Positions 26,693-54,154 of a DNA stretch of 64,000 bases are shown here, one piece after another. This stretch comes from Akkermansia muciniphila. Lineage in GTDB: Bacteria > Verrucomicrobiota > Verrucomicrobiia > Verrucomicrobiales > Akkermansiaceae. Below the pieces are notes generated by a model that was not told the origin of the DNA, did not search any database, and was given only the letters and a program-made list of their open reading frames with translations. The position numbers were made by a program, and so were the translations under genes. Location: positions 1 to 64,000 of the forward strand of contig SFDX01000015.1 of the NCBI GenBank assembly GCA_004557455.1, written 5' to 3'. Within the stretch, counting starts at the first letter, position 1. Each line of letters begins with the position of its first letter.

Positions 26693-26817
26693 CGGAGGTG
26701 CTTAGGGCCGCGGCACCTCAGCCAAGCCCGAAAATCGCTGCGTAACCCACAAAAATACAGGTTTAGCAGAAAAAATCCGGTGGCAGGGATTTTCCGGAAA
26801 AAAGGCTTGCATCACCG
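26693..26817 (+). repeat. about 125-nt repeat, copy A (inverted partner at 51641..51769)
   Basis: About 89% identity to the reverse complement of 51641..51769. Contains the conserved hairpin GAGGTGC-N11-GCACCTC and a conserved core cagccaagcccgaaNatcgctgcgtaacccacaaaaatacaggtttagcagaaa. Confidence 0.85.
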
Positions 26818-27121
26818 CGACCGCCCTCCGTGCGGTGCAGCTTATGAAGGAGCAGGCCGACCCCCGCGCCGTCCGCACCGAAATCAGCGTCCGCAATCGC
26901 TACAGGGACAAGCGGGACTTCTTCCTCCGCCTCAAGCGCAACCGCTCTTGAGGCCGGAGCGCCCTGCCTCTGAGGATGGACACAGGGGCCATGGAGAAGG
27001 GGGGATTCAACGCTGTTTCGGAGGTCGCATATCACCCGGAGGAAACGGAGACTCTTCCCCCGGCCGCTGAGGTGGTTCGCCGCCCTTTGGCAGGAATATC
27101 GTCTGCCCCGATATTTTGAGC

Positions 27122-27150
27122 TTGATTTCTCTCCGTTATTCCACTACACT
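27122..27150 (+). promoter_or_regulatory. promoter TTGATT-17-TACACT for the PEP-CTERM protein gene (about 7-nt leader)
   Basis: TTGATT at 27122-27127, spacer tctctccgttattccac, TACACT at 27145-27150, ATG at 27164. Confidence 0.45.
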
Positions 27151-27163
27151 TAATCCCGCACGT

Positions 27164-27973
27164 ATGAAACTGCGTTCTCTCCTTCGTTCGCGTATTCTCC
27201 CCTTAGCCGCGCTCCTTGCCCTCGCCGCCCCTCCTTCCCGAGCGGCGGTGGAGATTATTACGTTCGGACCGGCGGGAAAATCTCTTTTCTCGACCTTTGC
27301 TACGGATCGCGTTACCACTCTGAGTAATGGTACGAGTGTTACTCTGTCGAGTAAGGATTCTCTGCAATGCATAACGACGTCATCTGAAGAGAGAGTTTCC
27401 ACTATTACGGCTAATGAGCCGTGGGTTAATGAATCCGCAGTAGAGGCGCTTAATAATGATTTGGGTACCCATATTACTGTTGCGGATATAGTAGGGACCG
27501 GATCGACGCCTATGCTGAGCGCTGCACATGGTAAAGGCGATGGGTTATGCTTGAATCTTGGTTCTACGCATCAAGTGGGTGACTCTATTACTCTCTACAT
27601 GTTTGTAACAGCCAGAGCTAGCGATTCAAATAAGACCATGTGGAATCTTGATGAGTTAACGGGTTTTCTTTCTCTGCTGGGTAGTGCGACATTGGAAAGG
27701 GCTGTCTATAGTGTTAATAACGGTTTTGTATCTTGTGGGCTAACGTCTAATATCGGGAGTACTTCGGCCAAGCACGCTATTTTGAAACTTTCGGGTAATA
27801 TCAAGGATGGGGGAACGGAGCTTCGCATTCCTCTTTCTATTGGTACAAGCGTGAACAACGAGGTTTATTCCATCGGTGCCATCCTATACTCCTACGACGT
27901 CCCTGAACCGTCATCATCTTTCCTCGTACTCTCCGGTTTATTACTCCTGCTACGCCGCCGGCGGCGGGGGTGA
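27164..27973 (+). CDS. PEP-CTERM-anchored secreted protein (putative exosortase substrate)
   Basis: Signal peptide MKLRSLLRSRILPLAALLALAAPPSRA. C-terminal VPEPSSSFLVLSGLLLLLRRRRRG is a PEP motif plus TM helix plus Arg cluster. Confidence 0.8.
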   Translation: MKLRSLLRSRILPLAALLALAAPPSRAAVEIITFGPAGKSLFSTFATDRVTTLSNGTSVTLSSKDSLQCITTSSEERVSTITANEPWVNESAVEALNNDLGTHITVADIVGTGSTPMLSAAHGKGDGLCLNLGSTHQVGDSITLYMFVTARASDSNKTMWNLDELTGFLSLLGSATLERAVYSVNNGFVSCGLTSNIGSTSAKHAILKLSGNIKDGGTELRIPLSIGTSVNNEVYSIGAILYSYDVPEPSSSFLVLSGLLLLLRRRRRG

Positions 27974-27994
27974 TGCTTACTCTCTCTTTCTCAC

Positions 27995-30294: not shown

Positions 30295-30313
30295 TATGTT
30301 CTGACGTAATTGC

Positions 30314-32074: not shown

Positions 32075-32110
32075 CTGGCTCTCTATGAATAATTCGGGTG
32101 AGACTTGGGT

Positions 32111-32140
32111 AGTGTACAGCATTTTGAATGCTGTAGTCAA
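32111..32140 (-). promoter_or_regulatory. promoter TTGACT-18-TACACT with the perfect palindrome TACAGCATT-ttg-AATGCTGTA in the spacer (copy b)
   Basis: On the minus strand: ttttagtcTTGACTacagcattcaaaatgctgTACACT. Same architecture as 37123..37152 and 37261..37290. Confidence 0.55.
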
Positions 32141-32259
32141 GACTAAAACAGATTTTTCACGAAAAAAAGGGATTTTTGAGCAAATAAACACTTTAAGATG
32201 GTGTATCTCCTGAACGCAAAATCGTGTAATCTATTGAGTATCAACGATTTACATGAGGT

Positions 32260-33552
32260 GTGCATTCAAAATGCATATCCTATGTGCGGGACATGGCAGG
32301 GAAGCAGGTATTGTCGGAAGACGAATTGAGGCAGCGCGTGCCGGATTGTACGGGCTGCGCGGCGTGTCTATGTGCCTGCGGGGTGCAAGCTATCCGGATG
32401 GTCGAGTCTCCGGAGGGCTTCTACCGACCGTCGATAGATTCGGGGCGCTGTGTGGGGTGCTGCAAGTGCATGCGGACTTGCCCGGTGTTGAATGAGGTCC
32501 AACGGAAGGCAGAGCAGAAGCGTCATACTGAGTCGGGAGGGGAGCCGAAGTTCCTTTATGGGTGGTATGGGGATGCAGTTGCAAGGGAGAGCAGCAGCAG
32601 CGGGGGCATTTTCACGGCGCTTGCTCGCGGTGTATTGCAGCGTGGAGGATGCGTGTTCGGGGCTGCGATGGGGGTGGATATGCGGGTGCGGCATGCTCGT
32701 GCTACATCGGAGGAAGCGCTGGGGGCTCTGCGTGGGGCTAAATACATGCAGAGCCGCATGGATGGTATCTATCGAGAGGTGAAGGCCGCCTTGGTGGCCG
32801 GGCGCCCTGTGCTTTTCTGCGGTGTCCCATGCCAGGTGGGAGGATTGCGTGCATACTTGGGGTACAAAGCTTGGCCGCAGTTGCTGACGATAGATGTCGT
32901 GTGCCACGGAGTGCCGACACTGCATCTGATGCCGGCTTATCTTGCGGATGAGATGCATCGCGCGGGGCGCGCGGATGCCCCGACCTCTGTGAACTTTCGA
33001 GACAAGTGCAGCGGGTGGGGACATTATGGGTACAGTGTGACCCTCACATGGCCTGATGGCACACAGCGGACTGTACCGCAGGGAAAGGATGCCTATATAC
33101 GCGCCTATTTATCGGATCTTCTGTTGAGCAAAGCCTGTTATAACTGTCGGTACAGTGGGGTGAGGGGTAAACTATCGGACATAACCTTGGGGGATGCTTG
33201 GGGAATATGGGAGGCTTGCCCGGAGGTGGATTGGCGGCAGGGTGTCTCTCTGGTTGTGGTACATACCGACAAGGGCGCGTCTTCCTTGTCGGGAGCCGAG
33301 GGCGTGGAACTGCACCGTTGGAGCGAAGAAGAAGCTACGCTTCATAACCCGTCTTTGTTGCGCCCCGCATCGGAACCTCCCGGGACGGAGGTCGCGCGAC
33401 GATTATTAGGGGGAGTTGCTCTGGAAAAGATTTTGATTCGGGTAGGGAAGCTCAACCCGAACAATAACAAGAGTTTCTTTCACCCAAAAGGTGCTTTGCA
33501 TGTGCTACGGAAGATACTGTGTGCCCTATTACCGAGGTGCATCAGTAGGTGA
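32260..33552 (+). CDS. coenzyme F420 hydrogenase/dehydrogenase beta-subunit-like (FrhB family) Fe-S flavoprotein
   Basis: N-terminal 2x[4Fe-4S] ferredoxin motifs CTGCAACLCACGV and CVGCCKCMRTCP. FrhB-like C-terminal domain. This family is typically paired with polysaccharide pyruvyl transferases. Confidence 0.65.
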   Translation: MHSKCISYVRDMAGKQVLSEDELRQRVPDCTGCAACLCACGVQAIRMVESPEGFYRPSIDSGRCVGCCKCMRTCPVLNEVQRKAEQKRHTESGGEPKFLYGWYGDAVARESSSSGGIFTALARGVLQRGGCVFGAAMGVDMRVRHARATSEEALGALRGAKYMQSRMDGIYREVKAALVAGRPVLFCGVPCQVGGLRAYLGYKAWPQLLTIDVVCHGVPTLHLMPAYLADEMHRAGRADAPTSVNFRDKCSGWGHYGYSVTLTWPDGTQRTVPQGKDAYIRAYLSDLLLSKACYNCRYSGVRGKLSDITLGDAWGIWEACPEVDWRQGVSLVVVHTDKGASSLSGAEGVELHRWSEEEATLHNPSLLRPASEPPGTEVARRLLGGVALEKILIRVGKLNPNNNKSFFHPKGALHVLRKILCALLPRCISR

Positions 33553-36068: not shown

Positions 36069-37110
36069 GGATATTATGTTGTTGGTTCTGATGGTCGTAG
36101 GCATTCAATTTGCGGAGGTAAATGCTCAGCAGCGGAAGTGCAGCAAAGCGCGGCAAGTGAGCTATTTTCTCCATTCTCCGGAAATGAAGGTTGTCATTTA
36201 ATCGAAGCATGGTGGCCATCGGGGGAGTTATGGCGGCCCGGAGGGCGCGGGCTAAGGAGAGGTAGGAACGCCGGTTAGGGGGAACCTTATGGAATTGCCA
36301 CTTGAGGTAGGCGTTCAGGCGCTTGGCAAAGAAGAGTTGCACCTTCGGGCGTTCGGCGATACCCTCTTCGACTGCGAGTCGGGCAAACTCACTCAGGGTA
36401 CCGAGGAGGTGCTCGATATTGCGCATGGAGTAGGAGTTCATGATGGAGCCGGGGCGAACATTGCGGTACACATAGGTGCGCTCCGGGATGCAATAGATGG
36501 AGGGTTTGGAGAAAGCCAAGTAAAGGCTCCATCGGTTGTCTTCGTGCAGGAGTCCCTCTTCGAATAAGAGATGATGCTCGCGGATGAAGTCTGCCCGAAG
36601 CAGCTTATTCCAGCCTTGTACCATCCACTGCTCTGCAATATAGGCTTTGAGCGCTTCCTCCCGCTGCCACAGAATACCTGTTTGGTTATCCATCCATGCC
36701 GGGTCATCCGTCATCAGGCTCGTTTGTCCTATGACGACATCTGCTCCGTGCTGCAGGGCGGCTTCATAGAGGAGGGATAGTGCATTCGGGGACAGTTGAT
36801 CATCGCTGTCCAAGAAGAGGAGGTACTCTCCCGTTGCCGCGGCTATTCCTGTATTACGTGCAGCAGATAACCCCCTGTTTCTCTCGTGGCAAAGGACTCT
36901 ATGGGCAAGAGGATTATCGGTTGTCGCTAAAAGCTGCAGAGCGAGCTCCATCGAGTCATCCCCTCCGCAATCATCAACGAGAATCAGCTCAAACGGTGGC
37001 GGCTCGAGCTGTGCGGTGATAGAACGGATGCAATCTCCGATGTAGTCTCGAACCTGATAAACAGGCACGATGAGAGATATGGCGGGGTGATGTGTGTGTG
37101 AGGATGACAT
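36061..37110 (-). CDS. family 2 glycosyltransferase
   Basis: ISLIVPVYQVRDYIGDCIRSI...ELILVDDCGGDDS...LFLDSDDQL. Confidence 0.8.
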   Translation of the reverse strand: MSSSHTHHPAISLIVPVYQVRDYIGDCIRSITAQLEPPPFELILVDDCGGDDSMELALQLLATTDNPLAHRVLCHERNRGLSAARNTGIAAATGEYLLFLDSDDQLSPNALSLLYEAALQHGADVVIGQTSLMTDDPAWMDNQTGILWQREEALKAYIAEQWMVQGWNKLLRADFIREHHLLFEEGLLHEDNRWSLYLAFSKPSIYCIPERTYVYRNVRPGSIMNSYSMRNIEHLLGTLSEFARLAVEEGIAERPKVQLFFAKRLNAYLKWQFHKVPPNRRSYLSLARALRAAITPPMATMLRLNDNLHFRRMEKIAHLPRFAALPLLSIYLRKLNAYDHQNQQHNIHE

Positions 37111-37122
37111 GATGCCGGGAGG

Positions 37123-37152
37123 ATACTACAGCATTTGTAATGCTGTAGTCAA
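37123..37152 (-). promoter_or_regulatory. promoter TTGACT-18-TAGTAT with an embedded 11-nt-arm perfect palindrome ACTACAGCATT-aca-AATGCTGTAGT (copy c); near-leaderless for the GT2 at 37110
   Basis: On the minus strand: tttttagacTTGACTacagcattacaaatgctgTAGTATcctcccggcatcATG. Confidence 0.55.
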
Positions 37153-37260
37153 GTCTAAAAATGGGGGATAGCGCATGTGGACTGTATCCGACGGCTACAC
37201 GCGAACGCAGAGGTGGGAGATATGGCTCCCCTTGACTATCAAGGATTTATGCCGAATTTG

Positions 37261-37290
37261 ATGACTACAGCATTACAAATGCTGTACACT
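37261..37290 (+). promoter_or_regulatory. promoter ATGACT-18-TACACT with palindrome TACAGCATT-aca-AATGCTGTA in the spacer (copy d), upstream of the plus-strand GT2
   Basis: atgacTACAGCATTacaAATGCTGTAcact; ATG at 37314. Confidence 0.5.
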
Positions 37291-37313
37291 GAGCCGAGGG
37301 AGGTAAGAGAAGC

Positions 37314-38342
37314 ATGATAGATGAACATGAAGAGTTAACGGATAAGTCAGTAGCCGTATCCGTTATTGTGCCGTTTTATAACGCCGCCGACTATTTGGAA
37401 GAGTGCATCAATTCCGTGCTGTCGCAGGATGTGGAAGCGGTGGTTGTGTTGTTGTTGATTGATGATTGCAGTACGGATGGTGGAGATCGCATAGCGGAGC
37501 GAATTTTTGCCGGTGCCGGGGCTGACAGGCTGTGCGTATTGGTTCGTCAGCCGCGGAATGCCGGGACATCGACTGCCAGGAACACGGGGGTAGAGATGTC
37601 GCGGGGTCGTTATGTGTTCTTTTTGGATGCGGATGATAAGCTGTTACCCGGTGCGCTGCGCGCGATGTTGCGGGCTGCGGAGGCTCATCAGGCAGACATG
37701 GTGATGGGCGATGTGGAGTGCCGCACCGGGAAGTATGGCGACTATTTTCACCCGAGGTGCCTCGGCGTCTTGGAGGGTGAGGAATCCTTCGCCGCACAGA
37801 TGCGGCACGATGTGTATGCTACTGTGTGGAACCGATTGATTCGGCGGGAGTATTTAGAGAACCCACCCCTTCGCTTCGAGGCCGGTATTTATCATGAGGA
37901 CGAGCTGTATTGTTTCCGACTCCATGCTCGCTTCGGCCGCACCGTTGTCATCCCGAATACGACCTACTACTACCGAACGGAGGTTCCGGGGTCTCGTGAT
38001 ACCGTCTATACGTTTCAGCATGTCATTGACTCCTTCATTGTTGCGAAGGGAGAAGTTGTCTGTGCGTCGAAGAATCATCTATCCGAGCGCGGGGATGTGG
38101 TGCGCCACATCACCATGTTGCTCCAAACGACGCTGGATTATAAGCTCAGAATATCCAAGTCGGGGTGGCGTCAGGTGTGGTATGCCGCCGGGCGTATTGT
38201 GCCGCTTCTGGAGCCGGACTTGTTGGGCCTCATGCTCCGGGCACCGCAACCTATCGTTCGGCGAGTCGGCAAGCTCTGCCGTATGGCCCCGACTTGGCTG
38301 CGACGGCCCGTGCTGTGGGCGTGTTTTATGTGCCTGAAGTAG
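37314..38342 (+). CDS. family 2 glycosyltransferase
   Basis: VSVIVPFYNAADYLEECINSVLSQ...LLIDDCSTDGG...FFLDADDKL. Confidence 0.8.
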   Translation: MIDEHEELTDKSVAVSVIVPFYNAADYLEECINSVLSQDVEAVVVLLLIDDCSTDGGDRIAERIFAGAGADRLCVLVRQPRNAGTSTARNTGVEMSRGRYVFFLDADDKLLPGALRAMLRAAEAHQADMVMGDVECRTGKYGDYFHPRCLGVLEGEESFAAQMRHDVYATVWNRLIRREYLENPPLRFEAGIYHEDELYCFRLHARFGRTVVIPNTTYYYRTEVPGSRDTVYTFQHVIDSFIVAKGEVVCASKNHLSERGDVVRHITMLLQTTLDYKLRISKSGWRQVWYAAGRIVPLLEPDLLGLMLRAPQPIVRRVGKLCRMAPTWLRRPVLWACFMCLK

Positions 38343-38478
38343 CCGGGAATTCGGGTGCTACTTGGCTCCGGGGGACAGATATGACTCTTCGGGGGCCGGT
38401 GAATGGGCTCTTAGCTTTTCAGCCTGATTCACCCGTAGCCTGACGAAGTATCTATCCGAAAAAGTTCTCTCGACATCC

Positions 38479-38955
38479 TCACTCCCACAGGAAGGACTTT
38501 TTGGTGTCCTTGAGGGTGTCATTGACGAAGAGGTCGATTTTCCAGCTGAGGATATCGCCGTTGCGGGCGCGTTCCGGGCCGGAGAAGAAGAAGTCAGCCT
38601 TGCGGTCGAAAGCGGGTTTGCGGGGGGCGGGAAAGTCGAGGGTGCGGGTGAGGACTTTGCCGGCGGTGCGGGCCTGGGTGTAGTGCATGACGAGGCGGAC
38701 GTGGGCTTGCGGGTCGGCGTCGTTCCAGCGCACGTGGTAGTAGTCGCCGAGGCGGTTACGGCGTTCGGCCTCGGTGTTGGTGCCGTAGAGGAGGTAGCGG
38801 GCGTTGGCACGGAGGGGAACGGCAGCCCAAGAGTCGGCGGGCAGGGCGGTGGATTTCAACGGCAGGTCGGCCACGCCGGTAATGCAGGTGCGGGAGGGGG
38901 AACAGGAAACCAGAGCGGCGAGGAGAAAGGAAGCCGTGATGAAACGCTGAAGCAT
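38479..38955 (-). CDS. hypothetical lipoprotein
   Basis: MLQRFITASFLLAALVSCSPS is a signal peptide plus lipobox; 158 aa; no recognisable domain. Confidence 0.45.
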   Translation of the reverse strand: MLQRFITASFLLAALVSCSPSRTCITGVADLPLKSTALPADSWAAVPLRANARYLLYGTNTEAERRNRLGDYYHVRWNDADPQAHVRLVMHYTQARTAGKVLTRTLDFPAPRKPAFDRKADFFFSGPERARNGDILSWKIDLFVNDTLKDTKKSFLWE

Positions 38956-39013
38956 AAGTTGTTCTACACCCGAGGGGCGGGGGTTGTCAATACAAAACTG
39001 CGGCGGGGATGGT

Positions 39014-39754: not shown

Positions 39755-39772
39755 GGGGAAGGGTAGGGGGCT

Positions 39773-40423
39773 TCAGCGCATAGCGGCAATGGCCGCTGCC
39801 ATGTCATCCGCACGGAAGGTCGAGGAACCCGCCACCAGGCAATCAGCCCCTGCCTCCTTGCAGAGCGGAGCCTGAGCAGGCCCGATGCCGCCGTCCATCT
39901 GGATGAGGAAAGAGCCGGCCCCCTCCGCGCGAGCCTGCGCCAGCGTTCGCACCTTGTCGAGCACATGAGCCATGAAACTCTGCCCCCCGAAACCGGGGAC
40001 CACACTCATCACCAGTACCATGTCCAGCTCCGCCAAGTAGGGCAACACCGCCTCCACCGGGGTAGCCGGGTTGAGAGCCAGCCCCGCCTGAGCCCCACCG
40101 GCACGGATGGCCGCCAACGTGGCGTGCAGGTCCACCGCCCCCTCTCGCTCCACGTGGATGGTAATCATGCTCATCCCCGCCTTGAGGAAACGCGGCAGGT
40201 AGTGATCCGGCGCATCGATCATGAGGTGGGCATCCAAGAAGGTACCCGCCGGGACACTGTCATGAATGGCCCGGCAGATGTCCGGCCCGAACGAGATGTT
40301 GTCCACGAACGAACCGTCCATCACATCCAGGTGCAGCCAATCGGCACCGGCGTTCAGGGCTCGCACAGCCTCCTCGCCGATGCGTCGGAAATCGCAGGCG
40401 AGCATGGAAGGAGCAATCAACAT
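39773..40423 (-). CDS. rpe: ribulose-phosphate 3-epimerase
   Basis: IAPSMLACDFRRIGEEAVRALNAGADWLHLDVMDGSFVDNISFGP...VMSVVPGFGGQSF is canonical Rpe. Start at the internal ATG (MLIAPS). Confidence 0.9.
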   Translation of the reverse strand: MLIAPSMLACDFRRIGEEAVRALNAGADWLHLDVMDGSFVDNISFGPDICRAIHDSVPAGTFLDAHLMIDAPDHYLPRFLKAGMSMITIHVEREGAVDLHATLAAIRAGGAQAGLALNPATPVEAVLPYLAELDMVLVMSVVPGFGGQSFMAHVLDKVRTLAQARAEGAGSFLIQMDGGIGPAQAPLCKEAGADCLVAGSSTFRADDMAAAIAAMR

Positions 40424-40436
40424 GGCGCAGTGCGGC

Positions 40437-41381
40437 TCAAAGACTCTTCCAAGGCAGGGCGGCAAGCAGGGCATCGAAGCCCAGCCCGGTACCGGCAGGC
40501 ACGGGGAAATCGGGCGTGATGTTGAAACCGAGCTGTTCCGAGAACGGATTGGGCTTGTAGTTCAGGTGGGTCAGCAGACCGCAGAACGGCACCTCCGCCT
40601 CCGGCTTTCCGGTGTAATAGGCAGCGGCATTGTAGGCGGCCCAGCACTGGCCCAGCGGGTGGTCCATGTAAGAGGTGAAGACCGGCATACCCGTGGTGCT
40701 CATATGGCGCGCGGGCTTCACCAGTCGCATCATGGGCTTGGTAGTGCGCTGCGGGATGATGCTCTCATTCTGCACGGGCATATCGTAGCCCAAGGGCATA
40801 CCGGCGTCCTGCAGGGCCTGCCACACGGCAACATCGTAGTAGCAGGGGTCCTCCACAAAGTCAATGCGCTGACGCATGGCCGGCGGCAGCATCTCCCAGA
40901 ACTGCAGGGCATCCTCCAGCGACAGCGTGCAGTTAAAGTCAACCCGCCACTTCCAATCCGGCACCATGGAGGCCAAATTCACCAGACGCTCCACCGTCGC
41001 GGCCAACTTGGGCACCACCTTGATTTTGCCGACGCGGAAGCCGCGTTGGTGGAGGTTGTACACTTGGCCGGGCGTGGCACTCACGGGCAGGGTGGCATGG
41101 CTGCGCGGCACCCGCAGACCCGCAAAAAGGCTCTCTCCCTTGGCGCGCGCGGCGCCGTCCAGCTCCACGCATTTGAGTGCGCGAGCCCCCAAGCGCAGAG
41201 GCGTGCCGTCCCGCAGAGCATCCAGCTCATATTCCAGCGGGGCATCCCCCAGCTCCGGCCAGGGTTGCAGGCAGGCATAGCCGCCGTTGTCGCCGCGCAA
41301 AAGAACACCCTGGCGTGGCTGCGCAGCCGCGCGCGCGCTCAACGCCCCCAGCGGATAAAGTGTGTACGGAGAGTACTGCAT
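40437..41381 (-). CDS. enolase-superfamily enzyme, o-succinylbenzoate synthase (MenC)-like
   Basis: KxK (GKIKV), metal ligands DFNCTL, IDFVEDP and a downstream D. About 314 aa, typical of the short OSBS subgroup. Function is inferred. Confidence 0.5.
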   Translation of the reverse strand: MQYSPYTLYPLGALSARAAAQPRQGVLLRGDNGGYACLQPWPELGDAPLEYELDALRDGTPLRLGARALKCVELDGAARAKGESLFAGLRVPRSHATLPVSATPGQVYNLHQRGFRVGKIKVVPKLAATVERLVNLASMVPDWKWRVDFNCTLSLEDALQFWEMLPPAMRQRIDFVEDPCYYDVAVWQALQDAGMPLGYDMPVQNESIIPQRTTKPMMRLVKPARHMSTTGMPVFTSYMDHPLGQCWAAYNAAAYYTGKPEAEVPFCGLLTHLNYKPNPFSEQLGFNITPDFPVPAGTGLGFDALLAALPWKSL

Positions 41382-41533
41382 GCGCCTATTCTATCCTAAA
41401 TCCCCCATTTGTCACGCCCTTTTTTTGCCCCGTGTGCATTTTCTCACCCCTTCCTCCGGTGGTGATTGATGGGTGAGGGAACCCCGTATGTTGTGGTATA
41501 GTTGAGAAATTTTAATAATTTTTCATAAAATGC

Positions 41534-41562
41534 TTGACATCGGGGGTCGGGAGGTGTATAGT
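41534..41562 (+). promoter_or_regulatory. strong sigma70-like promoter TTGACA-17-TATAGT; the start codon lies 8 nt after the -10, giving a leaderless mRNA
   Basis: TTGACA at 41534-41539, spacer tcgggggtcgggaggtg, TATAGT at 41557-41562, ATG at 41571. Confidence 0.65.
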
Positions 41563-41570
41563 CTCCGCCC

Positions 41571-42002
41571 ATGAGACGTACCCTGACATTTTTGCTGAGT
41601 CTTGTGCTGTTGACCATCGTCGCTCCTGCGGACGAGGTAACGGCCCTGCGTCCTGTCATCCACCAAGCGGCGGCGGACAACGATGTAGATCCGGTGATGA
41701 TGGAAGCGATCATCCGTCACGAATCCGCCCACGCCACCTCCAAGGCGGCCCGCAACAAGAATAACCTGGCGGGCATCATGGGCCGCAACGGACAACGCCG
41801 CTACGGCAGCAAGGAGGAATGCGTGCATGATCTGGGCCGCATCTTGGCCAAGTACAAGGCCAAGGGCCGCACCACGACCGCGCAGGTGGGCCGCTCTTAT
41901 GCCGCTGCGGGCAACTGGGCCGCGCATGTCGACCGCCATATGCGGGAGATTTTGGCCGGTAAATACGGCGAATTGCCCTCCTCCGGCACCGCAAACAACT
42001 GA
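41571..42002 (+). CDS. small secreted protein, possibly a lysozyme-like/transglycosylase (SLT-like) domain
   Basis: Signal peptide MRRTLTFLLSLVLLTIVAPA. DPVMMEAIIRHESAHATSKAARNKNNLAGIM resembles SLT/glucosaminidase core motifs but is degenerate. Confidence 0.35.
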   Translation: MRRTLTFLLSLVLLTIVAPADEVTALRPVIHQAAADNDVDPVMMEAIIRHESAHATSKAARNKNNLAGIMGRNGQRRYGSKEECVHDLGRILAKYKAKGRTTTAQVGRSYAAAGNWAAHVDRHMREILAGKYGELPSSGTANN

Positions 42003-42030
42003 GGAAGCAGCTGCAAGCCGCACAAAAAGC

Positions 42031-42059
42031 TTGCAGAGAGCGGCGGCATCCGCTAGAAT
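42031..42059 (+). promoter_or_regulatory. promoter TTGCAG-17-TAGAAT; start codon 10 nt after the -10, giving a leaderless mRNA
   Basis: TTGCAG at 42031-42036, spacer agagcggcggcatccgc, TAGAAT at 42054-42059, ATG at 42069. Confidence 0.5.
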
Positions 42060-42068
42060 ACGCTTGCT

Positions 42069-43295
42069 ATGCCGCAGAAAATGCTTTTGTTGATGATGCC
42101 GGCGCTGGCGCTGCTTGCCGGCGCCCCCCTGCCGGTGCAGGCCGCCCCGACGCGCCGCCCCGCAGCCAAGCAGCAGACGACTGCTCGCCTGCCCATGTTG
42201 CGCACATGGGAAAAACGCTTGACCGTCGCCATGGACGAGGCGTTGAAAGAGAACGGCTCCGAAGGTGAGCCGGCTGACATGGCCCGCAAATGTGTGGTGG
42301 ATGCCGTGACCGCTGCCGAAAAGTGGCAACGTGCCCGCACGGCGTACCTCGAGGCAGCAGCCCAAGCTGTCGGCGGAAAATCCGAGCGCCTGACCGAGCT
42401 GAAGCAGGAAGGCGAGCGCAACCTGGAGGCCGACATGCGAGCCTTGGCGGCGGGTGCTGCTTGGTATCCCGATGCCCGCTGCAAAGAATTGGGGATAGCG
42501 GAGGAAGATCGTGAGGAAGCGGCTACCCCCGGGGTGGGGGATGTACCCCTGCCGGTGATCAAGCTGCTGCAATGCGGCTCCAACAGCACACAGGAATACG
42601 CCCTCGCGGCGGAGTCCGCTGCTGCCGTCTGCTCGGCCATGATCAAGGCCGAGAATGACGCCTTGCTGAAGATGTACCCCACTTCCGAGGAACCCTTCCC
42701 CGGCCCGGAGCCGGTCACGGGGCTGCTGTGGGAGGCCGTTCCCGAGCTGAAGGCGCAGGCCCCGAAGCTGATCTCCCTGTGGAAGGCGGAGGTCAAGGCT
42801 TGGGAGGAATACTGCGAGGCCATGCGCGTGTTGCTGGCTCCCGGTTGCCTGATGTACACGGGCAGTATGGCCTACATGGACCGGCTGACGCTGAAGCTCA
42901 TTGCCAACCGAGAGTCCTTCTTGTCCGTGCTCATTCCCCCGCCCGCCGAGCAGAGTGCGGAGGAGGCCGATGAGGGCGATGAACCCGCCGCGCAGGACAT
43001 GACCCCCGAGCAACTGCGCCGCGCCGCCGAGGCCGATGACCCGAACGCCCAGTGGGAGCTCGGGGAGCGTCTGTTGAACGGGAAAAACGGCTTCAAGAAG
43101 AACGCCAAGGAGGCCGTCAAATGGCTGGAGAAATCCGCCAAGCAGGGACACTGCATGGCTGCCCTGCGCCTGAGTGAGTGCTATCGCAACGGCACCGGTG
43201 TCGCCAAGGATGCCAAGAAAGCCGACTACTGGCTGGAAGAGAGCGGTGACGGCATGGAATCCCAGGGCGGCGAAGACCAGGGCGGGGAACAATAA
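42069..43295 (+). CDS. secreted Sel1-repeat (TPR-like) protein
   Basis: Signal peptide MLLLMMPALALLAGAPLPVQA. C-terminal Sel1 repeats AQWELGERLLNGKNGFKKNAKEAVKWLEKSAKQGHCMAALRLSECYRNGTGVAKDAKKADYWLEES. Confidence 0.7.
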   Translation: MPQKMLLLMMPALALLAGAPLPVQAAPTRRPAAKQQTTARLPMLRTWEKRLTVAMDEALKENGSEGEPADMARKCVVDAVTAAEKWQRARTAYLEAAAQAVGGKSERLTELKQEGERNLEADMRALAAGAAWYPDARCKELGIAEEDREEAATPGVGDVPLPVIKLLQCGSNSTQEYALAAESAAAVCSAMIKAENDALLKMYPTSEEPFPGPEPVTGLLWEAVPELKAQAPKLISLWKAEVKAWEEYCEAMRVLLAPGCLMYTGSMAYMDRLTLKLIANRESFLSVLIPPPAEQSAEEADEGDEPAAQDMTPEQLRRAAEADDPNAQWELGERLLNGKNGFKKNAKEAVKWLEKSAKQGHCMAALRLSECYRNGTGVAKDAKKADYWLEESGDGMESQGGEDQGGEQ

Positions 43296-43307
43296 GGGAC
43301 GCAGCCT

Positions 43308-44372
43308 ATGAATCTGGAGGACCTCAGGGGGCAGATCGACAGCATCGATGCGCAAATCGTCGAGCTGTTGAAGCAGCGTGCCCGCTGTGCGCACGAGGTA
43401 GGCCGCCGCAAGCGCGAGGCAGGCCGGCCCACCTTCGTGCCAGAGCGGGAGAGCGCTCTCATCGCCAAGCTGCTGCGCCTGAATGCCGGCGAGCTGCCGG
43501 AGCAGTGTCTGCTGAGCATCTACCGCCAGATTGTGAGCTGTTCCTTCCACATGGAGGGCGGCATGCGGGTCGGTTATCTGGGCCCGGAGGGCACCTGGAG
43601 CCACCAAGCGGCCCTTGCGCGCTTCGGTGACAGCGTGGAGTTCGTGCCCTTCCCCTCGTTCGCCCATGTGTTTTCCGCCGTGGAGCGGCAGGAGGTCAAC
43701 TACGGGGTCATCCCTATCGAGAACAGCACGGATGGCTCCGTCTCGCAGGCGATGGACGAGTTCGGTCACAGCCCCCTGCGCATCTGCGCCCAGGTGCAGC
43801 TGAGCATCCGCAACTGCTTGCTGTCTGACATCCCGGCGGAGGCCATCACCACCATCTACAGCCACCCGCAGGTGCTGGGGCAGTGCCGTGATTGGCTTCG
43901 CGAGAACTTCCCGCAGGCGGAGTTGGTGTCCGTCTCCTCCACGGCGGCCGCGGCCGCACGCGCCAAGCAGGAATCTGCCTCCGGTGCCGCCGCCTTGGGC
44001 AGTAAGCTGACGGGCACGCTGCACCACCTTCCCGTGCTGGCCGAAAATATCCAGGACAAGGCATACAACAGCACGCGCTTCGTCGTTATCGGCGACCAGC
44101 GAACCGCCCCGGCGGAGAAGAACCGCACCACCCTCTGCTTCACCGTGCCGCACACCCCCGGCAGCTTGGTGGATATGCTTCTGCACTTCCGCCGCCACGG
44201 CATCAACCTGTTGTGCATCGACAGCCGCCCGACCCGCGACACGGCGTGGGAGTATCTGTTCTACGTTGACGTGGAAGGCCACGAAGAGCTGGACCCCCTG
44301 AAGAGCTGTTTGGAGGAAATGAAGCAGCAGAGCCTCATGTTCAAGGTACTGGGCTCCTACCCGGAGCAATAG
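43308..44372 (+). CDS. pheA: bifunctional chorismate mutase / prephenate dehydratase
   Basis: N-terminal CM domain LRGQIDSIDAQIVELLKQRARCAHEVGRRK. PDT domain VGYLGPEGTWSHQAA...IPIENSTDGSV. C-terminal ACT domain. Confidence 0.9.
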   Translation: MNLEDLRGQIDSIDAQIVELLKQRARCAHEVGRRKREAGRPTFVPERESALIAKLLRLNAGELPEQCLLSIYRQIVSCSFHMEGGMRVGYLGPEGTWSHQAALARFGDSVEFVPFPSFAHVFSAVERQEVNYGVIPIENSTDGSVSQAMDEFGHSPLRICAQVQLSIRNCLLSDIPAEAITTIYSHPQVLGQCRDWLRENFPQAELVSVSSTAAAAARAKQESASGAAALGSKLTGTLHHLPVLAENIQDKAYNSTRFVVIGDQRTAPAEKNRTTLCFTVPHTPGSLVDMLLHFRRHGINLLCIDSRPTRDTAWEYLFYVDVEGHEELDPLKSCLEEMKQQSLMFKVLGSYPEQ

Positions 44373-44378
44373 CGCGCC

Positions 44379-45353
44379 ATGGCCTTCACCCTGCAACAGG
44401 CGCAGCGCATGCTGCTGCAAGCCCGGGAACGCGGCCGCCTGCCGCATGCCCTGCTCATCACCGGGGCGGAGGAAGCCGGTACGCGGCGGCTGGCTCTGTC
44501 CCTGGCGGAGGCCCTCAACGGCGCGCGGGCCGAGAGTCTGGAGACCCTGCGCCATCCGATGTGCCGCATTATCCGTCCCGGGTCGAAAATCCGCAGTATT
44601 CCCGTAGAGAGCGTGCGCGCGGTGGAGCCTTTCCTGTCCCTGCGTGCCATGGAGGGCGAAACCAAACTGGTTATCATGGTGGAGGCCGAGCGCATGAAGG
44701 ACGAGGCCGCCAACGCCTTCCTCAAGACCTTGGAGGAGCCTCCGCCGCAGACGCTCATCATCCTCATCACGGAGCACCCGGACCACCTGCTGCCCACCAT
44801 CCTCTCCCGCTGCGTGCGCGTGCCGCTGCATACCCCCGGCGCGGGTCTGCACCTCAGCGAGGCCCAGCGCGCTTTCCTGCCCGCCGTGCAGCAGGCCCTC
44901 CCCGACATCGGCTCGGATGTGACGGCCTTGGCTCTGCGTGCGGATTTGACCGCCGTTCTCGCTCAGCGGAGGGAACAGATAACCGATCGCCTCACCGAGG
45001 CGGTGAAGGCCGAGGCCAAGGCGGTGGCAGAGGGGACGGATATCAAGGATTGGGAGAGCCGTCAAAAGGACGCCACGGCGGCGCAGATTGAGACCGAATA
45101 CCTGCGCGAGCGGGAGGAAGTGCTGGAGTTGCTCTCCCTCTGCATCGGCCAGGCGGTGCTGCTGGCCAGTCATGCCCCGGACGTGAAGCCCCTCGTGCCG
45201 CAGGTGGCAGAACTGGCGAAACGTCCGCTGCCGGAGCTCCTGCGCCGCATGCGTGCCGTGGATGCCTTGCGCAGCGACCTTAATTTTAACGTCAACGAGG
45301 CCCTGGCACTCGAGGCTCGCCTCATCGACATCATCGGAAATATCTCATTATGA
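44379..45353 (+). CDS. holB: DNA polymerase III delta-prime subunit
   Basis: AAA+ clamp-loader fold; HALLITGAEEAGTRRLALSLAEAL, FLKTLEEPPPQTLIILIT, SRC motif ILSRCVRV. Confidence 0.8.
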   Translation: MAFTLQQAQRMLLQARERGRLPHALLITGAEEAGTRRLALSLAEALNGARAESLETLRHPMCRIIRPGSKIRSIPVESVRAVEPFLSLRAMEGETKLVIMVEAERMKDEAANAFLKTLEEPPPQTLIILITEHPDHLLPTILSRCVRVPLHTPGAGLHLSEAQRAFLPAVQQALPDIGSDVTALALRADLTAVLAQRREQITDRLTEAVKAEAKAVAEGTDIKDWESRQKDATAAQIETEYLREREEVLELLSLCIGQAVLLASHAPDVKPLVPQVAELAKRPLPELLRRMRAVDALRSDLNFNVNEALALEARLIDIIGNISL

Positions 45354-46225
45354 ACAGTATGACAGGATTCGGGGCGGCTTCTGCCTCCCTCAAGCGGTGT
45401 TCCCTCCGGGTGGAAATCGGCGGGGTGAACCGCAAGCAAACAGAAATTGCCATCTCCCTCCCCCGGGCATGGGCCGAGCTTGAAACACGCGTCCGCGAGG
45501 TGGTCGCTGGGCCGATTTCCCGCGGGCGGGTCAACGTTTCCATCTCCCTCCAAAGCAGCAGCGGCGGGGCTATTCCCTTGCAGCTTCATGCGGAAAAACT
45601 GGCGGATCTGCGCATGCACCTGCTGTCGCTGGCCGCCTCTCTGGAGCAGCCGGTGCAGCCCACGCTCGATGCGCTGATTCGTTTGGGAATCATTGCGGAG
45701 GAGTCCGAGGCGGATATTTCTGCGGAGGAGGCGTGGACGGCCATTCAGCCGGCGCTGGAGGAGGCCTTGCAGAAGTTCTGCTCCCTGCGTGCAACGGAGG
45801 GCGAGAACATGAAGCGGGACCTTCTGGCGCGCATTGATACCCTGCGGCAGCTCCGCAGCGAGATCAAGGCGCAGGCGGCCACCGTTCCTGCGCATTACCG
45901 CGAGATGTTGCTCAAGCGTTTGCAGGAGGCGGACCTGCCTTTCCCGGCGGATGACGAGCGCATTATCAAGGAGATCGCGCTTTTTGCTGATCGCTGCGAT
46001 GTGAGCGAGGAGCTCACGCGCCTCGGTTCGCACCTGGATCAGTTCTGCCGCCTGTGTGACAGTGCGGAGCCCGTCGGGCGTACGCTCGATTTCCTGTGTC
46101 AGGAGATCTTCCGGGAGTTGAACACCACGGGCTCCAAGGCCAATGATGCGGCTTTGGCCCAGCTTGTCGTGACGGCCAAGACGGAGCTGGAGAAGATTCG
46201 TGAACAAGTGCAAAATATCGAATAA
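45350..46225 (+). CDS. yicC: YicC-family stress-induced protein
   Basis: MNSMTGFG N-terminus and overall YicC_N/DUF1732 architecture; adjacent gmk (conserved yicC-gmk synteny); ATGA overlap with holB. Confidence 0.8.
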   Translation: MNSMTGFGAASASLKRCSLRVEIGGVNRKQTEIAISLPRAWAELETRVREVVAGPISRGRVNVSISLQSSSGGAIPLQLHAEKLADLRMHLLSLAASLEQPVQPTLDALIRLGIIAEESEADISAEEAWTAIQPALEEALQKFCSLRATEGENMKRDLLARIDTLRQLRSEIKAQAATVPAHYREMLLKRLQEADLPFPADDERIIKEIALFADRCDVSEELTRLGSHLDQFCRLCDSAEPVGRTLDFLCQEIFRELNTTGSKANDAALAQLVVTAKTELEKIREQVQNIE

Positions 46226-46226
46226 T

Positions 46227-46817: not shown

Positions 46818-46838
46818 GCCGCCTGTCCCGCTCTTTTT

Positions 46839-46880
46839 CCCGTCTGCGGGCGTAAAAAAGCCCGCGGCGGGGTGTTTTTT
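46839..46880 (+). terminator. rho-independent terminator after gmk
   Basis: Imperfect stem cccgtctgcgggc-gtaaaaaa-gcccgcggcgggg followed by tgTTTTTT. Confidence 0.5.
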
Positions 46881-46882
46881 GC

Positions 46883-46911
46883 TTGCAAGCCCGCGCGCGG
46901 GGGCGTATGAT
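46883..46911 (+). promoter_or_regulatory. promoter TTGCAA-17-TATGAT for nagA
   Basis: TTGCAA at 46883-46888, G-rich spacer gcccgcgcgcgggggcg, TATGAT at 46906-46911. This places the start at the second ATG (46935). Confidence 0.5.
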
Positions 46912-46934
46912 GGGTGGCGCAAGAGAGTCATCTT

Positions 46935-48077: not shown

Positions 48078-48098
48078 TTTTTTTCCACGGTCGGGCTG

Positions 48099-48150
48099 CC
48101 GGGCATGCGGTGCTGTGCATGCCCGGGGGCTCGTCCGCGTTTCTTTCGTT
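48099..48150 (+). terminator. candidate terminator after nagA
   Basis: Perfect 10-bp stem CCGGGCATGC-ggtgctgt-GCATGCCCGG followed by the U-rich stretch gcgtttctttcgtttta (not immediately adjacent). Confidence 0.35.
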
Positions 48151-48168
48151 TTATCGTAATCCCTCGGA

Positions 48169-48861: not shown

Positions 48862-49026
48862 CTCCCCTCATGGGAGGGGGAATCTACTACGGGCATGTGT
48901 GTGGAGCGCGCCCGAAAAAAGGTGCCGCCTTAGTACTCAACTTGAGGATACAATCTGAAAGGTGAAGCGTCAGCGAGGAAGAACAGATGCGGGAGTGGTG
49001 ATTTCCTTACTTCTATGCATGAAGTA

Positions 49027-50259
49027 TCAGTCACTCACCACCTTGAGAAAATCCTCCACACCCATGATCCACTCTTTCTGATGGTCTGAGAAGGACGAGT
49101 GCAGACAGCGCGGCAGAACAAGTCGAACGTCCTGTTGCTTCATCTCCGTCGTTTGATTTTCGCTGATACCGGGTTCGATTGTAAGAAGATGTTTAGTTTT
49201 GATTCGAGCTGCTTCCGTCAGTATCTGTCGCCATCGATCCTTGCATGTAGTCTTGACCCCCAGCATATACAGATGCATCGAAGGAAAAGCGGGATCCCGA
49301 TAGGCTTCTATACTTGGAAAAATATAATCCGGACGAGATTTGCCCTCTGTAACAGGAGTTCGCGAGTATGCTATATTACGATCGATGAAAATTTGCTCGA
49401 TATGGTTCTCAAGAGATTGGCCTGCTCTGGTTTTTCTCCTATTGAGAAATGTTTTAGAAAGAGAAATAAAACGCTCGGCAGAAAGCCCACGATTGATTTC
49501 CTCATCTAAAAGATACTTTTCAAAAGAGAGAAACAGTTTTGTCTCTGTATTGTACCAGTAATAAAGCAAGTCGTCTGCCGTACCGGATTGCACTTCTCCG
49601 GCATTCGGGCAACCGGAAATTAGGCGAGCGTAGGAGGAAAACTCGGCTGTCGATGGGAGAGTTCCCTTGAACCGAACTATCATCTCATCTAAAAAATCAT
49701 CATTTTGCGGAACCTCCAGCCCCATTGCAAAAAAGAGTTCATAGGCCCGCGCCGGAAGCTCTCTGTTGATGAGGATATCAGAATCGACACCGGAAAAAGA
49801 TGTCTTCTGCTGTTCAGTATATCCGAATAACCATTTCAACCAAGGCAGAGCGTCGCTGTCCTTGTCTACAATAGCAAAGACGGCGGGAGTATCTGACTTT
49901 TTCCGATGTGCGATAAAGAGAAGATCTCCTTCCTCCATGCGCAGTGTCGCATCATTGGTCCGGTAGTACATTCGATATTCACTTCTGTCAGTTCTTCCAA
50001 GCTCTCGCCCCTTTGCCCGTGCATCATACAGAGTGAGTACCCCGGGATTCGATATGACAGAATCGTCATCTGCATAAATATATAAGCACGGAATGTTGAG
50101 CTTTTCGCACCCTTGGGGGTCACCGAACATTTGCACAATGGGACGAATGGCGTTGATTTCATGTTGGTTCGAGTGCCGGGGTGACGTCTCAACAGCAGAA
50201 AGTATCTTAAAGGCCAGAGCATCGAAGCAATTGGCCAAGCAGGCGGAACGTAACATCAC
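49027..50259 (-). CDS. EcoRII-like type IIE/IIP restriction endonuclease
   Basis: C-terminal catalytic region TRAGQSLENHIEQIF...GKSRPDYIFPSIEAYRDPAFP...LGVKTTCKDRWRQILTEAARI resembles the EcoRII-C PD-(D/E)xK domain. Lies immediately downstream of a Dcm-like methyltransferase with a 4-nt overlap. Low GC. Confidence 0.6.
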   Translation of the reverse strand: MMLRSACLANCFDALAFKILSAVETSPRHSNQHEINAIRPIVQMFGDPQGCEKLNIPCLYIYADDDSVISNPGVLTLYDARAKGRELGRTDRSEYRMYYRTNDATLRMEEGDLLFIAHRKKSDTPAVFAIVDKDSDALPWLKWLFGYTEQQKTSFSGVDSDILINRELPARAYELFFAMGLEVPQNDDFLDEMIVRFKGTLPSTAEFSSYARLISGCPNAGEVQSGTADDLLYYWYNTETKLFLSFEKYLLDEEINRGLSAERFISLSKTFLNRRKTRAGQSLENHIEQIFIDRNIAYSRTPVTEGKSRPDYIFPSIEAYRDPAFPSMHLYMLGVKTTCKDRWRQILTEAARIKTKHLLTIEPGISENQTTEMKQQDVRLVLPRCLHSSFSDHQKEWIMGVEDFLKVVSD

Positions 50260-51575
50260 GATTTAAAACAGTTATAATTTGCCAAAACCGATGCTATAAA
50301 GCGAGCGGAGGCTTCAATTGCGGGAACAACGACACTGTTTCCTATTTGGTGATATGCCTGAGTCGAGGATACGGGGAAGATAAAAACAGAAGGATCATAC
50401 CCTTGCAGCTGCATAGCTTCCGAAACGGATAAACGTCGAGGACGATCGCCCGGCTGTTCAATAAGAATTTCGGCCCCGTCTTTATGATACCTTGCGGATA
50501 TAGTTCTCGTTACCTCATCGTCTCTGAGAGGCCAGGTGTGTAACCCATAACCGAATCCGTTTCCGGCTTTTTCGTGGTGCGCCTTGTGCCGTTCCAATGT
50601 AGCCCAAGTTCCCTCTCCCAATGTGTACCCCGGTAAATTTTTCATGATAATGCCGGGAAGAGTTGGATAACTGTAATCCTTTCCCGGTTTTGTCGGAATA
50701 TCAATCGGGTATTTTTCTGTATTGATTTGCTTCGGATCAAATCCGATAAGATACATGCGTTCGCGATGCTGGGGAACCCAAGCAGCCCCATCGACTATCT
50801 TCCATGAAATGACATATCCGAGTTCATCCTGAAGAGATCGCCGAATCACTTCAAATGTGCGACCTTTGTCGTGTGAGAGAAGATTTTTGACATTCTCCAA
50901 CATAAATGCTTTAGGCCGCTTTAATCTGAGAATTTCCTTAATCTCGAAGAAGAGCGTACCTTGGGTTTCATCCTCAAATCCATGCTTTCTCCCCAAAGAA
51001 TTTTTTTTGGACACTCCCGCCAGAGAAAACGGTTGGCAGGGGAACCCCGCACAAAGGACATCATGGTCGGGAATGGAAGACTTCGGAATACTCCGAATAT
51101 CGCCGAACGGCATTTCACCATAGTTGCGAAGATACGTTTGCTGAGCGTATTTATCCCACTCACTGGAAAAGACACATTTGCCTCCCGCTCTTTGGAAGGC
51201 TATACGAAAGCCCCCTATGCCGGCAAAGAGGTCGATAAACGTAAAGTTCCACTGCTTGGGCGGAGCATAGGGGATACCATCGAATAGATCTCTGGACGCA
51301 CATTCAGGGAGAGAAACAGGTTCTCTTGCGGACAAAACACCATCATGTTCATCCTCGATTTTATATAAATGCCGTTGGAGAGAAAGTCTTCCTTCCTTAG
51401 TCAGGAAGGGAATTGGCTGCTCCTCCCATGCGCGCTGTACATAGTGGGATACAACAGCCAAATAATCACGATCGGAAGGGTTCGGAATATCAACCGTGTC
51501 TTCAATAAGTTTTCCTCCGCCGGCAAGGAGACCGGTGTATGAGAGAAATTCTGCGGACTGAGTTGATGTAGACAT
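50256..51575 (-). CDS. dcm: DNA (cytosine-5)-methyltransferase, Dcm/M.EcoRII-like
   Basis: Motif I FIDLFAGIGGF, motif IV GFPCQPFSLAG, motif VI ENVKNL, motif VIII QHRERMYLIG, motif X YHQIGNSVVVP. Start set at the ATG at 51575 because the upstream ATG (51605) falls inside the predicted promoter. Confidence 0.9.
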   Translation of the reverse strand: MSTSTQSAEFLSYTGLLAGGGKLIEDTVDIPNPSDRDYLAVVSHYVQRAWEEQPIPFLTKEGRLSLQRHLYKIEDEHDGVLSAREPVSLPECASRDLFDGIPYAPPKQWNFTFIDLFAGIGGFRIAFQRAGGKCVFSSEWDKYAQQTYLRNYGEMPFGDIRSIPKSSIPDHDVLCAGFPCQPFSLAGVSKKNSLGRKHGFEDETQGTLFFEIKEILRLKRPKAFMLENVKNLLSHDKGRTFEVIRRSLQDELGYVISWKIVDGAAWVPQHRERMYLIGFDPKQINTEKYPIDIPTKPGKDYSYPTLPGIIMKNLPGYTLGEGTWATLERHKAHHEKAGNGFGYGLHTWPLRDDEVTRTISARYHKDGAEILIEQPGDRPRRLSVSEAMQLQGYDPSVFIFPVSSTQAYHQIGNSVVVPAIEASARFIASVLANYNCFKS

Positions 51576-51595
51576 GATGGATGAATACCGCAGAC

Positions 51596-51624
51596 ATTCT
51601 ATCATCTCATATCTGCATTGTCAA
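51596..51624 (-). promoter_or_regulatory. promoter TTGACA-17-TAGAAT for the methyltransferase/restriction operon
   Basis: On the minus strand: tcTTGACAatgcagatatgagatgaTAGAATgtctgcggtattcatccatcATG. Confidence 0.45.
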
Positions 51625-51640
51625 GACCACAGCCCGGCTT

Positions 51641-51769
51641 CGGTGATGCAAGCCTTTTTTCCGGAAAATCTCTGCCATCAGAAAAATTCTTTCTGCTAAA
51701 CCTGTATTTTTGTGGGTTACGCAGCGATGTTCGGGCTTGGCTGAGGTGCCGCTGCCCTAAGCACCTCGG
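51641..51769 (-). repeat. about 125-nt repeat, copy B (inverted partner of 26693..26817)
   Basis: The reverse complement aligns to copy A at about 89% identity with a small indel block. The same hairpin (C)GAGGTGC-N11-GCACCTC(G) is preserved. It lies just upstream (minus-strand sense) of the dcm promoter. Confidence 0.85.
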
Positions 51770-51954: not shown

Positions 51955-51971
51955 GAATCCTGCGTTATACC

Positions 51972-54146: not shown

Positions 54147-54154
54147 GGGACGGC

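Follow-up and report, generated by a model that had tools for sequence, protein, structure and literature searches.

Insertion sequences (ISs) of the IS256 family, such as IS256 in Staphylococcus and Enterococcus, ISCth4 in Clostridium thermocellum and IS406 in Burkholderia, encode a Mutator-type DDE transposase (PF00872) in a single reading frame, measure 1.2-1.5 kb, and end in imperfect terminal inverted repeats of about 20-40 bp. These terminal repeats carry a subterminal motif, 5'-TGTAAA-3', and in ISCth4 the -35 box of the circle-junction promoter lies at bp 6-11 from the tip (PMC7780238). Here we analyze a pair of inverted repeats, copies A and B, in a 64,000-nucleotide stretch of DNA from Akkermansia muciniphila (assembly GCA_004557455.1, contig SFDX01000015.1, positions 1 to 64,000), which we refer to as the window. 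We conclude that each of the two repeats is very probably the decayed right end of an insertion sequence of the IS256 (Mutator-type) family, in other words IS debris, and we call these ends stub A and stub B. A preliminary description of the window had left three readings of the pair open, namely a cis-regulatory or small-RNA element, the trace of a mobile element or of an integration boundary, and a substrate for inversion of the intervening DNA.

Remnants of this kind are a well-known phenomenon. In IS-rich genomes such as those of Shigella, Bordetella pertussis and Yersinia pestis, solo IS ends and other remnants occur at synteny breakpoints. The window resembles these genomes in that truncated intergenic IS pieces lie between conserved blocks and variable low-GC (guanine-plus-cytosine) cassettes, and in that close relatives differ in gene order. 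It differs from them in that the link between IS and rearrangement is here a positional one only, and no intact pairs or reciprocal junctions were recovered. The finding of two dead IS ends is thus ordinary, and its main value lies in correcting annotation and in interpreting the remainder of the window. The parts of the two stubs are as follows.

26680..26817, plus strand: IS stub A, a 138-nt right end comprising the repeat and its reading frame, and ending at the common terminus
26680-26745, plus strand: coding tail of stub A, the last 21 transposase codons and TAA (LEIIAEVLRAAAPQPSPKIAA, then stop)
26746-26817, plus strand: noncoding right end of stub A
26788-26817, plus strand: right terminal inverted repeat of stub A, approximate (GATTTTCCGGAAAAAAGGCTTGCATCACCG)
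51641..51813, minus strand: IS stub B, a 173-nt right end with its stop codon at 51719-51717 and its tip at 51641 (YGRAYISPEKLEIFAEVLRAAAPQPSPNIAA, then stop)
51717..51887, minus strand: chimeric open reading frame (ORF) of 56 aa, annotated as a gene in public assemblies and made up of 26 non-IS codons followed by the last 30 transposase codons

Positions 26680-26817 on the plus strand are homologous to 51782-51641 on the minus strand, which makes an inverted pair of ~140 nt. A global alignment of the two copies contains 129 matches, 9 mismatches and one 4-nt indel (4 gap columns), corresponding to an identity of 90.8% when gaps are counted and 93.5% when they are not, and the longest perfect runs are 39, 30 and 23 nt. 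A repeat search splits the pair into two arms on either side of the 4-nt indel, one of 97 nt with 94% complementarity and one of 42 nt with 93%. The blastn E-value for copy A against copy B is ~1e-52, so the similarity is far beyond chance. The preliminary description had recognized this inverted homologous pair and had estimated an identity of about 89%, which is close to the computed values; the repeat is nonetheless slightly longer than was described there, where its coordinates fell 13 nt short on the inner side. The same description had pointed to a hairpin, GAGGTGC-N11-GCACCTC, and to a common peptide. Both are present: the hairpin is found in copies A and B, and the peptide, GDASLFSGKSLP, is read from the opposite strand of the two copies. 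When the full window was screened for repeats of 30 nt or longer, no third copy came to light, and the terminal 13-mer has exact matches at copies A and B only. The copy number within the window is therefore 2.

An indication of what the repeats are comes from their coding potential. One frame of both copies reads LEI[I/F]AEVLRAAAPQPSP[K/N]IAA followed by the stop codon TAA, and 2 of the 5 substitutions between copies A and B in this coding-tail stretch are synonymous. The repeat consists of the last 21 codons of a transposase and the stop codon, then 72-76 nt of noncoding DNA up to the right tip, whose sequence is ...GGCTTGCATCACCG (also given as ...GCATCACCG). In a large protein collection, the homologues P0005-P0009 of the 56-aa ORF carry its IS-derived part onward into the PF00872 domain. 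Among these, P0006, P0007 and P0009 run upstream into ...IRTSNIMECVNSQLKRRTRL..FPSEASLLRL..., and P0009 shares the tail and is longer upstream (...DCPAEVQRYIRTSNIMECVNSQLKRRTRLISVFPSEASLLRLMTARLMDLSDEWEGNSGRAYISPEKLAVIAEVLKSAAPQPTPNIAE). P0009 matches positions 301-377 of the 379-position Pfam model Transposase_mut (PF00872; E=7e-16; 58.5 bits, with a cut-off of 21), and P0006 matches it with 24.5 bits. The stubs code for only ~30 residues past the end of the PF00872 model, and for this reason they give no Pfam match by themselves; indeed, the 56-aa ORF and the four ORFs that overlap the repeats had zero matches to Pfam or NCBIfam.

These results affect how the ORFs at the repeats should be annotated. 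Two ORFs, at 26763-27035 (minus strand) and 51618-51929 (plus strand), had been described previously as spurious. Both exist, and both are spurious on the strand in question, but the genuine C-terminal tail of the transposase, on the other strand, had been missed. The 56-aa ORF at 51717..51887 on the minus strand is probably not a functional gene either. We regard the 56-aa "gene" of the public assemblies, along with the two opposite-strand ORFs, as artefacts of IS debris.

Fuller copies of the element were found on other contigs. The 2,244-nt contig L080 carries a near-complete element at ~872-2212 (~1.34 kb), which is frameshifted and internally deleted. This element has the IS256-type motifs EMYLQGVSTRKV and WQRCQFHF, and its right end is that of the stubs, with an identity of 87% for copy B and of 82% for copy A. 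By blastn, stub B matches L080 with 87% identity over 179 nt (E=3e-57) and stub A with 82% over 144 nt (E=5.5e-35). By tblastn, the corresponding values for the transposase tail are 87% over 30 aa (E=2.4e-11) and 81% over 21 aa (E=9.5e-5). Stub B is also 94% identical to contig L073 and 92.6% identical to contig L081, and while its homology to stub A spans 51782-51641, its homology to the fuller IS copies extends to 51813. The transposase part of L080 is 42-43% identical over ~190 aa to plasmid proteins named 'IS256 family transposase' or 'IS256-like element IS406' (E=1e-41 to 2e-44).

The architecture of the ends resembles that of the IS256 family in part. A related element of ~1.5 kb, in contig L086, has clear terminal inverted repeats, AGTGTAA[A/G]CTT..TTTCTGTAAAATC, and the same architecture, and its layout of tip, T-run and ..AAAATC box is like that of the stub-type end. 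The features shared with the family are the Mutator-type DDE transposase, the single transposase reading frame (in elements of ~1.5 kb for L086 and ~1.3 kb, after internal deletion, for L080), the imperfect terminal inverted repeats (clear in L086, only loosely matched in L080), the T-rich tract and the subterminal ..AAAATC box. In addition, the stub-type element has the hexamer TTGCAT, which is -35-like, at bp 6-11 from its right tip, i.e., where ISCth4 has its -35 box.

The right end has a sharp common terminus, ...GCTTGCATCACC(G), in six independent contexts: copies A and B of the window, and contigs L073, L075, L080 and L081. When these six are aligned, homology stops at one base, ...GGCTTGCATCACC(G), and the sequence beyond is unrelated. 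A common last base that is followed by unrelated flanks is the signature of the tip of a transposable element. Of the earlier readings, that of a mobile-element footprint or integration boundary is consequently the one that is borne out, given an IS256-family right end and a restriction-modification (R-M) polymorphism that begins at the tip of copy B. The latter concerns the genes around the stubs, which we list here.

24064-26316, plus strand: H+-pyrophosphatase (H+-PPase) gene, the 5' neighbour of copy A
27164-27973, plus strand: gene for a PEP-CTERM protein, the 3' neighbour of copy A, heading a low-GC polysaccharide cluster
48864..51640, minus strand: dcm/EcoRII R-M cassette, 2.78 kb and low in GC, from the tip of stub B to the stop codon of E3_binding
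49027-50259, minus strand: EcoRII (Pfam), in the low-GC R-M cassette
50256-51575/51605, minus strand: dcm (Pfam), in the low-GC R-M cassette
51972-54146, plus strand: M3 peptidase gene, adjoining copy B and divergent from dcm/EcoRII

Pfam matches confirm the H+-PPase, the PEP-CTERM protein, a Wzx-type flippase, the C-5 methylase, EcoRII and the M3 peptidase. The GC content is 0.45-0.49 in the dcm/EcoRII region (49-52 kb) and 0.43-0.55 in the glycan cluster (27-38 kb), as against 0.60-0.68 in the flanks, so that the dcm-EcoRII unit is low in GC as had been described. Both copies of the repeat point toward low-GC DNA. The M3 peptidase is 97% identical to a homologue in the metagenome-assembled genome 'Akkermansia sp. 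SUG1064', and the DNA of the window is also present in ENA assemblies and in GCA_004560525.1.

In contigs L075-L079 and L092, stub B is present at the same place, without dcm/EcoRII. Homology between these contigs and the window runs up to 51642 and begins again from 48863, at the E3_binding stop, with a short spacer, CTATAAAAG, between the two; the replacement is seen at L075 6907-6915 and L092 1-45. The R-M cassette is therefore present in some strains and absent from others, with this polymorphism starting precisely at the IS tip, and it varies independently of the remaining segment. Contigs L002 and L003 represent two more distant relatives, whose M3 peptidases have 97% and 92% amino-acid identity, respectively. 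Next to the peptidase gene they have neither a stub nor an R-M cassette, and the order of their genes is not that of the window. In L002, the equivalent of window positions 14441-18873 is directly joined to that of 51908-54913. In L003, the equivalent of 51887-54927 is followed by a 2-kb low-GC insert and then by that of 38474-45658. No IS or transposase traces were found in L002 or L003.

It is important to consider the observations that weigh against an IS256-family right end. The canonical subterminal TGTAAA motif, which is present in both ends of L086 (CTGTAAAATC), is CGGAAA in the stub-type element, where the equivalent box reads CCGGAAAATC, and the transposase has a C-terminal tail that extends ~33 aa past the Pfam model. 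The left and right inverted repeats of L080 are weakly similar, with a loose alignment of GCAGAATGAAAGGAATTTCGGGAAAG to CGGTGATGCAAGCCTTTTTTCCGGAAAATC. No intact copy with an uninterrupted transposase of ~400 aa was seen among at least 100 homologues, each of which has at most 219 aa, and no target-site duplication (8-9 bp in the family) was seen for the stub-type element, of which the stubs retain one end only. An empty site for stub A was documented in no relative, as all contigs recovered with the H+-PPase gene show the layout of the window. Finally, the R-M-plus and R-M-minus alleles are related by replacement (the short spacer versus 2.78 kb) with no clean duplication, so that either allele may be the ancestral one.

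In searches beyond these contigs, an exact 28-mer core had 0 matches in GTDB genome contigs, a gapped right-end pattern had 0 matches in JGI metagenome contigs, and a literature search on IS256 elements in Akkermansia returned nothing relevant. Most of the homologous transposase fragments lie on contigs of 0.5-2 kb, and one Logan contig terminates inside stub B, as would be expected of a repeat that breaks assemblies.

The window itself holds stubs of 138 and 173 nt and no transposase, in contrast to the described members of the family. Both stubs lack the transposase body and the left end, and therefore neither is able to transpose. Neither IS homology nor a left repeat was found upstream of 26680 or of 51813. 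The comparison with miniature inverted-repeat transposable elements (MITEs) is instructive in this respect. Like MITEs, the stubs are short, noncoding-sized, IS-derived intergenic repeats. However, a MITE has both terminal inverted repeats and can be mobilized in trans, whereas the stubs have the right end only and differ in their inner edges. We accordingly rejected a MITE as an explanation.

The history that we envisage for the stubs is as follows. The parent IS probably is, or was, active in this Akkermansia-like lineage. Two separate insertions would each have been followed by a deletion that removed the body and the left end (together more than 1.1 kb), with a different breakpoint in each stub. 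The pair would be inverted because the parent copies had inserted in opposite orientations, with their right ends pointing into the 24.8-kb segment between them. IS debris is found at several junctions where the compared genomes differ, and from this position we infer that the rearrangements, and the gain or loss of the R-M cassette, were in part due to IS activity. Most likely, the stubs have no present function. Their main residual effects would be that RecA-dependent recombination may on rare occasions use them as short stretches of homology and that, as repeats, they break assemblies. A more active role can be imagined, in which a dead IS tip is recognized by a transposase that intact copies supply in trans or by recombination machinery, and so acts as a hotspot for gain and loss of cassettes (dcm/EcoRII, glycan) at exactly that point, or in which a rare, reversible inversion of the 24.8 kb alters the expression of the glycan cluster and the R-M genes. 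We consider such a role unlikely, by a wide measure.

The stubs do flag a rearrangement-prone stretch of an Akkermansia-like genome. Close strains differ here in their R-M cassette, in their surface-glycan cluster and in where a small block with the M3 peptidase and DHquinase genes is located. This variation is relevant to strain typing and to the question of how gut relatives of Akkermansia vary their surface and defence genes.

We also considered whether the repeat could have been exapted, as a cis-acting element or a small RNA, to regulate the genes that it precedes, namely the PEP-CTERM/glycan genes and dcm, for example as a leader RNA or as an outward promoter at the IS end. This analysis involves one further feature.

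26440..26650, plus strand: promoter/operator-like module, one of four copies in the window, directly upstream of stub A, with a palindrome (TACAGCATTCTGAATGC) and TTGACA-17-GAAAAT at 26614-26642

Judging by its sequence, this module may function as a promoter or operator. It ends ~30 nt before stub A, so stub A is probably transcribed as part of the leader of the PEP-CTERM/glycan genes. Both stubs are oriented toward the downstream gene, and TTGCAT sits where the IS256 family has an outward -35 box. However, there is no -10-like hexamer 16-18 nt past TTGCAT in either flank, and we therefore rejected a hybrid promoter made of TTGCAT and a flanking -10 box. Moreover, dcm has its own promoter-like TTGACA-17-TAGAAT site (51624-51596) downstream of the tip. 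Just 17 nt separate the -35 box of this site from the tip of copy B, so that the distance of 100-350 nt upstream of promoters given in the preliminary description does not apply to this copy. An RNA element fares no better. Rfam yielded nothing on the repeat, either at the gathering threshold over the whole window or, for 26300-27300 including copy A, at E-values up to 10; copy B was scanned at the gathering threshold only. Single-sequence folding gave weak z-scores (-1.2 and -2.0), and RNAalifold, applied to six copies, found compensatory changes in 0 of 33 pairs and an unfavourable covariation term (+1.56). The GAGGTGC/GCACCTC hairpin is broken by substitutions in L073 and L075. Conservation of stub B between strains is 96%, which is no better than that of the neighbouring genes (92-98%), and a coding tail occupies the first half of the repeat. 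In the absence of any Rfam match or compensatory change, we do not classify the repeat as a structured RNA. A regulatory role, the first of the readings in the preliminary description, is thus very unlikely, and the repeat is not worth pursuing as a regulatory RNA.

Two further explanations assign a role to the 24.8-kb block as a whole, which comprises the glycan cluster, housekeeping genes and the R-M genes. The pair could be a working substrate for inverting this block as a switch, as the preliminary description had also proposed. This idea is favoured by the inverted orientation, by the 93% identity and by two of the perfect runs, of 39 and 30 nt. Runs of such lengths are near the minimum for RecA-dependent recombination, and an inversion of the 24.8 kb by homologous recombination is physically possible. 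Nevertheless, every contig that was recovered over either junction has the configuration of the window: the junction from H+-PPase to PEP-CTERM has this layout in 6 contigs, and the contigs over the junction from M3 peptidase to the stub do likewise. In L003, the inner block (38474-45658) and the outer block (51887-54927) have the same relative orientation as in the window. The Pfam gene lists for the segment and its flanks include no invertase or recombinase family. With contigs of one orientation only and no recombinase gene in or next to the segment, we do not regard the block as a programmed invertible segment, and a switch is not needed to explain repeats that IS debris explains; we judge it to be extremely improbable. 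Alternatively, a 25-kb composite transposon or genomic island, ending in the two stubs, might have introduced the entire segment, as would fit the flanking of the segment by inverted IS copies and the low GC on the inner side of both stubs. Yet the middle 10 kb (38.5-48.9 kb) has a host-like GC content of 0.60-0.65 and contains the housekeeping genes rpe, holB and gmk along with a pheA-type CM/PDT gene and a nagA-type amidohydrolase gene. L003 and L075, each without one or both of the islands, have this middle block too, and its gene order there is collinear. The R-M cassette varies apart from the rest of the 25-kb segment, and a flanking target duplication is not visible. With its host-like, housekeeping middle collinear in relatives, the composite transposon was rejected, and we give it next to no credence. 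Two decayed right ends of separately inserted IS copies are therefore our preferred explanation of the pair.

Additional IS debris lies near stub B.

54987..55107, plus strand: left-end stub of a related IS256-family element, 121 nt, between the DHquinase and SNF2 genes, starting at the left terminal inverted repeat GCGGAATGAAAGGAATTTCCGGAGAG

This stub is 71% identical over 122 nt to L080 positions 875-996 (E=2.5e-10); its homology starts where the L080 element starts, and its sequence can be aligned to the right end in reverse complement. Between this stub and stub B lies a 3-kb block containing the M3 peptidase and DHquinase genes, which is found in three different contexts across the window, L002 and L003. 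On the basis of this arrangement, the block might at one time have travelled between two IS copies in inverted orientation. A second, shorter piece of the same IS right end is present in L073 at 2043-2104 (79% over 62 nt), ~1.5 kb downstream of the first, which means that such stubs recur in related genomes.

Variable DNA was also seen at other places in the relatives. The 2-kb low-GC insert of L003 is at 5202-7145, beside the equivalent of window position 38474. Its genes, judged by eye from their sequence, encode an ATPase-like protein of 439 aa and an RloB-like protein of 204 aa, and the insert looks like a defence-type pair that occupies the variable spot where the glycan island has its boundary. 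In a strain that is ~96-97% identical to the window (GCA_004560525.1; L083 19964-21808), the glycan cluster has a different gene content, which includes an IS481-type (rve) transposase as well as a DDE_3 fragment. The glycan cluster therefore differs from strain to strain and draws in other families of IS.

Between stub A and the PEP-CTERM gene, the high-GC DNA contains an ORF of 35 aa (MKEQADPRAVRTEISVRNRYRDKRDFFLRLKRNRS) at 26844-26951 on the plus strand. It is annotated as a gene in public assemblies and is without known family, and it may be a piece of a gene that the IS disrupted. Look-ups with this ORF and with dcm returned no additional contexts.

At the beginning of the window, positions 1-2500 have a GC content of 0.43-0.48 and contain two paralogous small ORFs (402-872 and 838-1353) that are secreted/lipoprotein-like. 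There is a direct repeat between 404-470 and 915-981 (82%), as well as a 63-nt inverted repeat between 1366-1428 and 2388-2327 (79%). Positions 1411-1437 match the 5' region of the L080 IS with 92.6% identity over 27 nt, and this stretch may be additional IS debris.

The promoter/operator-like module upstream of stub A belongs to a set of four intergenic modules of ~190 nt, at 26440-26650, 32100-32290, 37110-37320 and 61020-61230. The order of elements within the module is a palindrome (TACAGCATTnnnAATGCTGTA), GTCAAGnCTAAA, a TTGA..ATCAA stretch and a second palindrome (CTGCATTCAAAATGC). The first palindrome has 12 strand-hits, compared with 0.42 expected. Within the glycan cluster, the sites are found where genes diverge or promoters lie, and a further site is near 61 kb; the module looks like a shared operator or promoter for some regulator.

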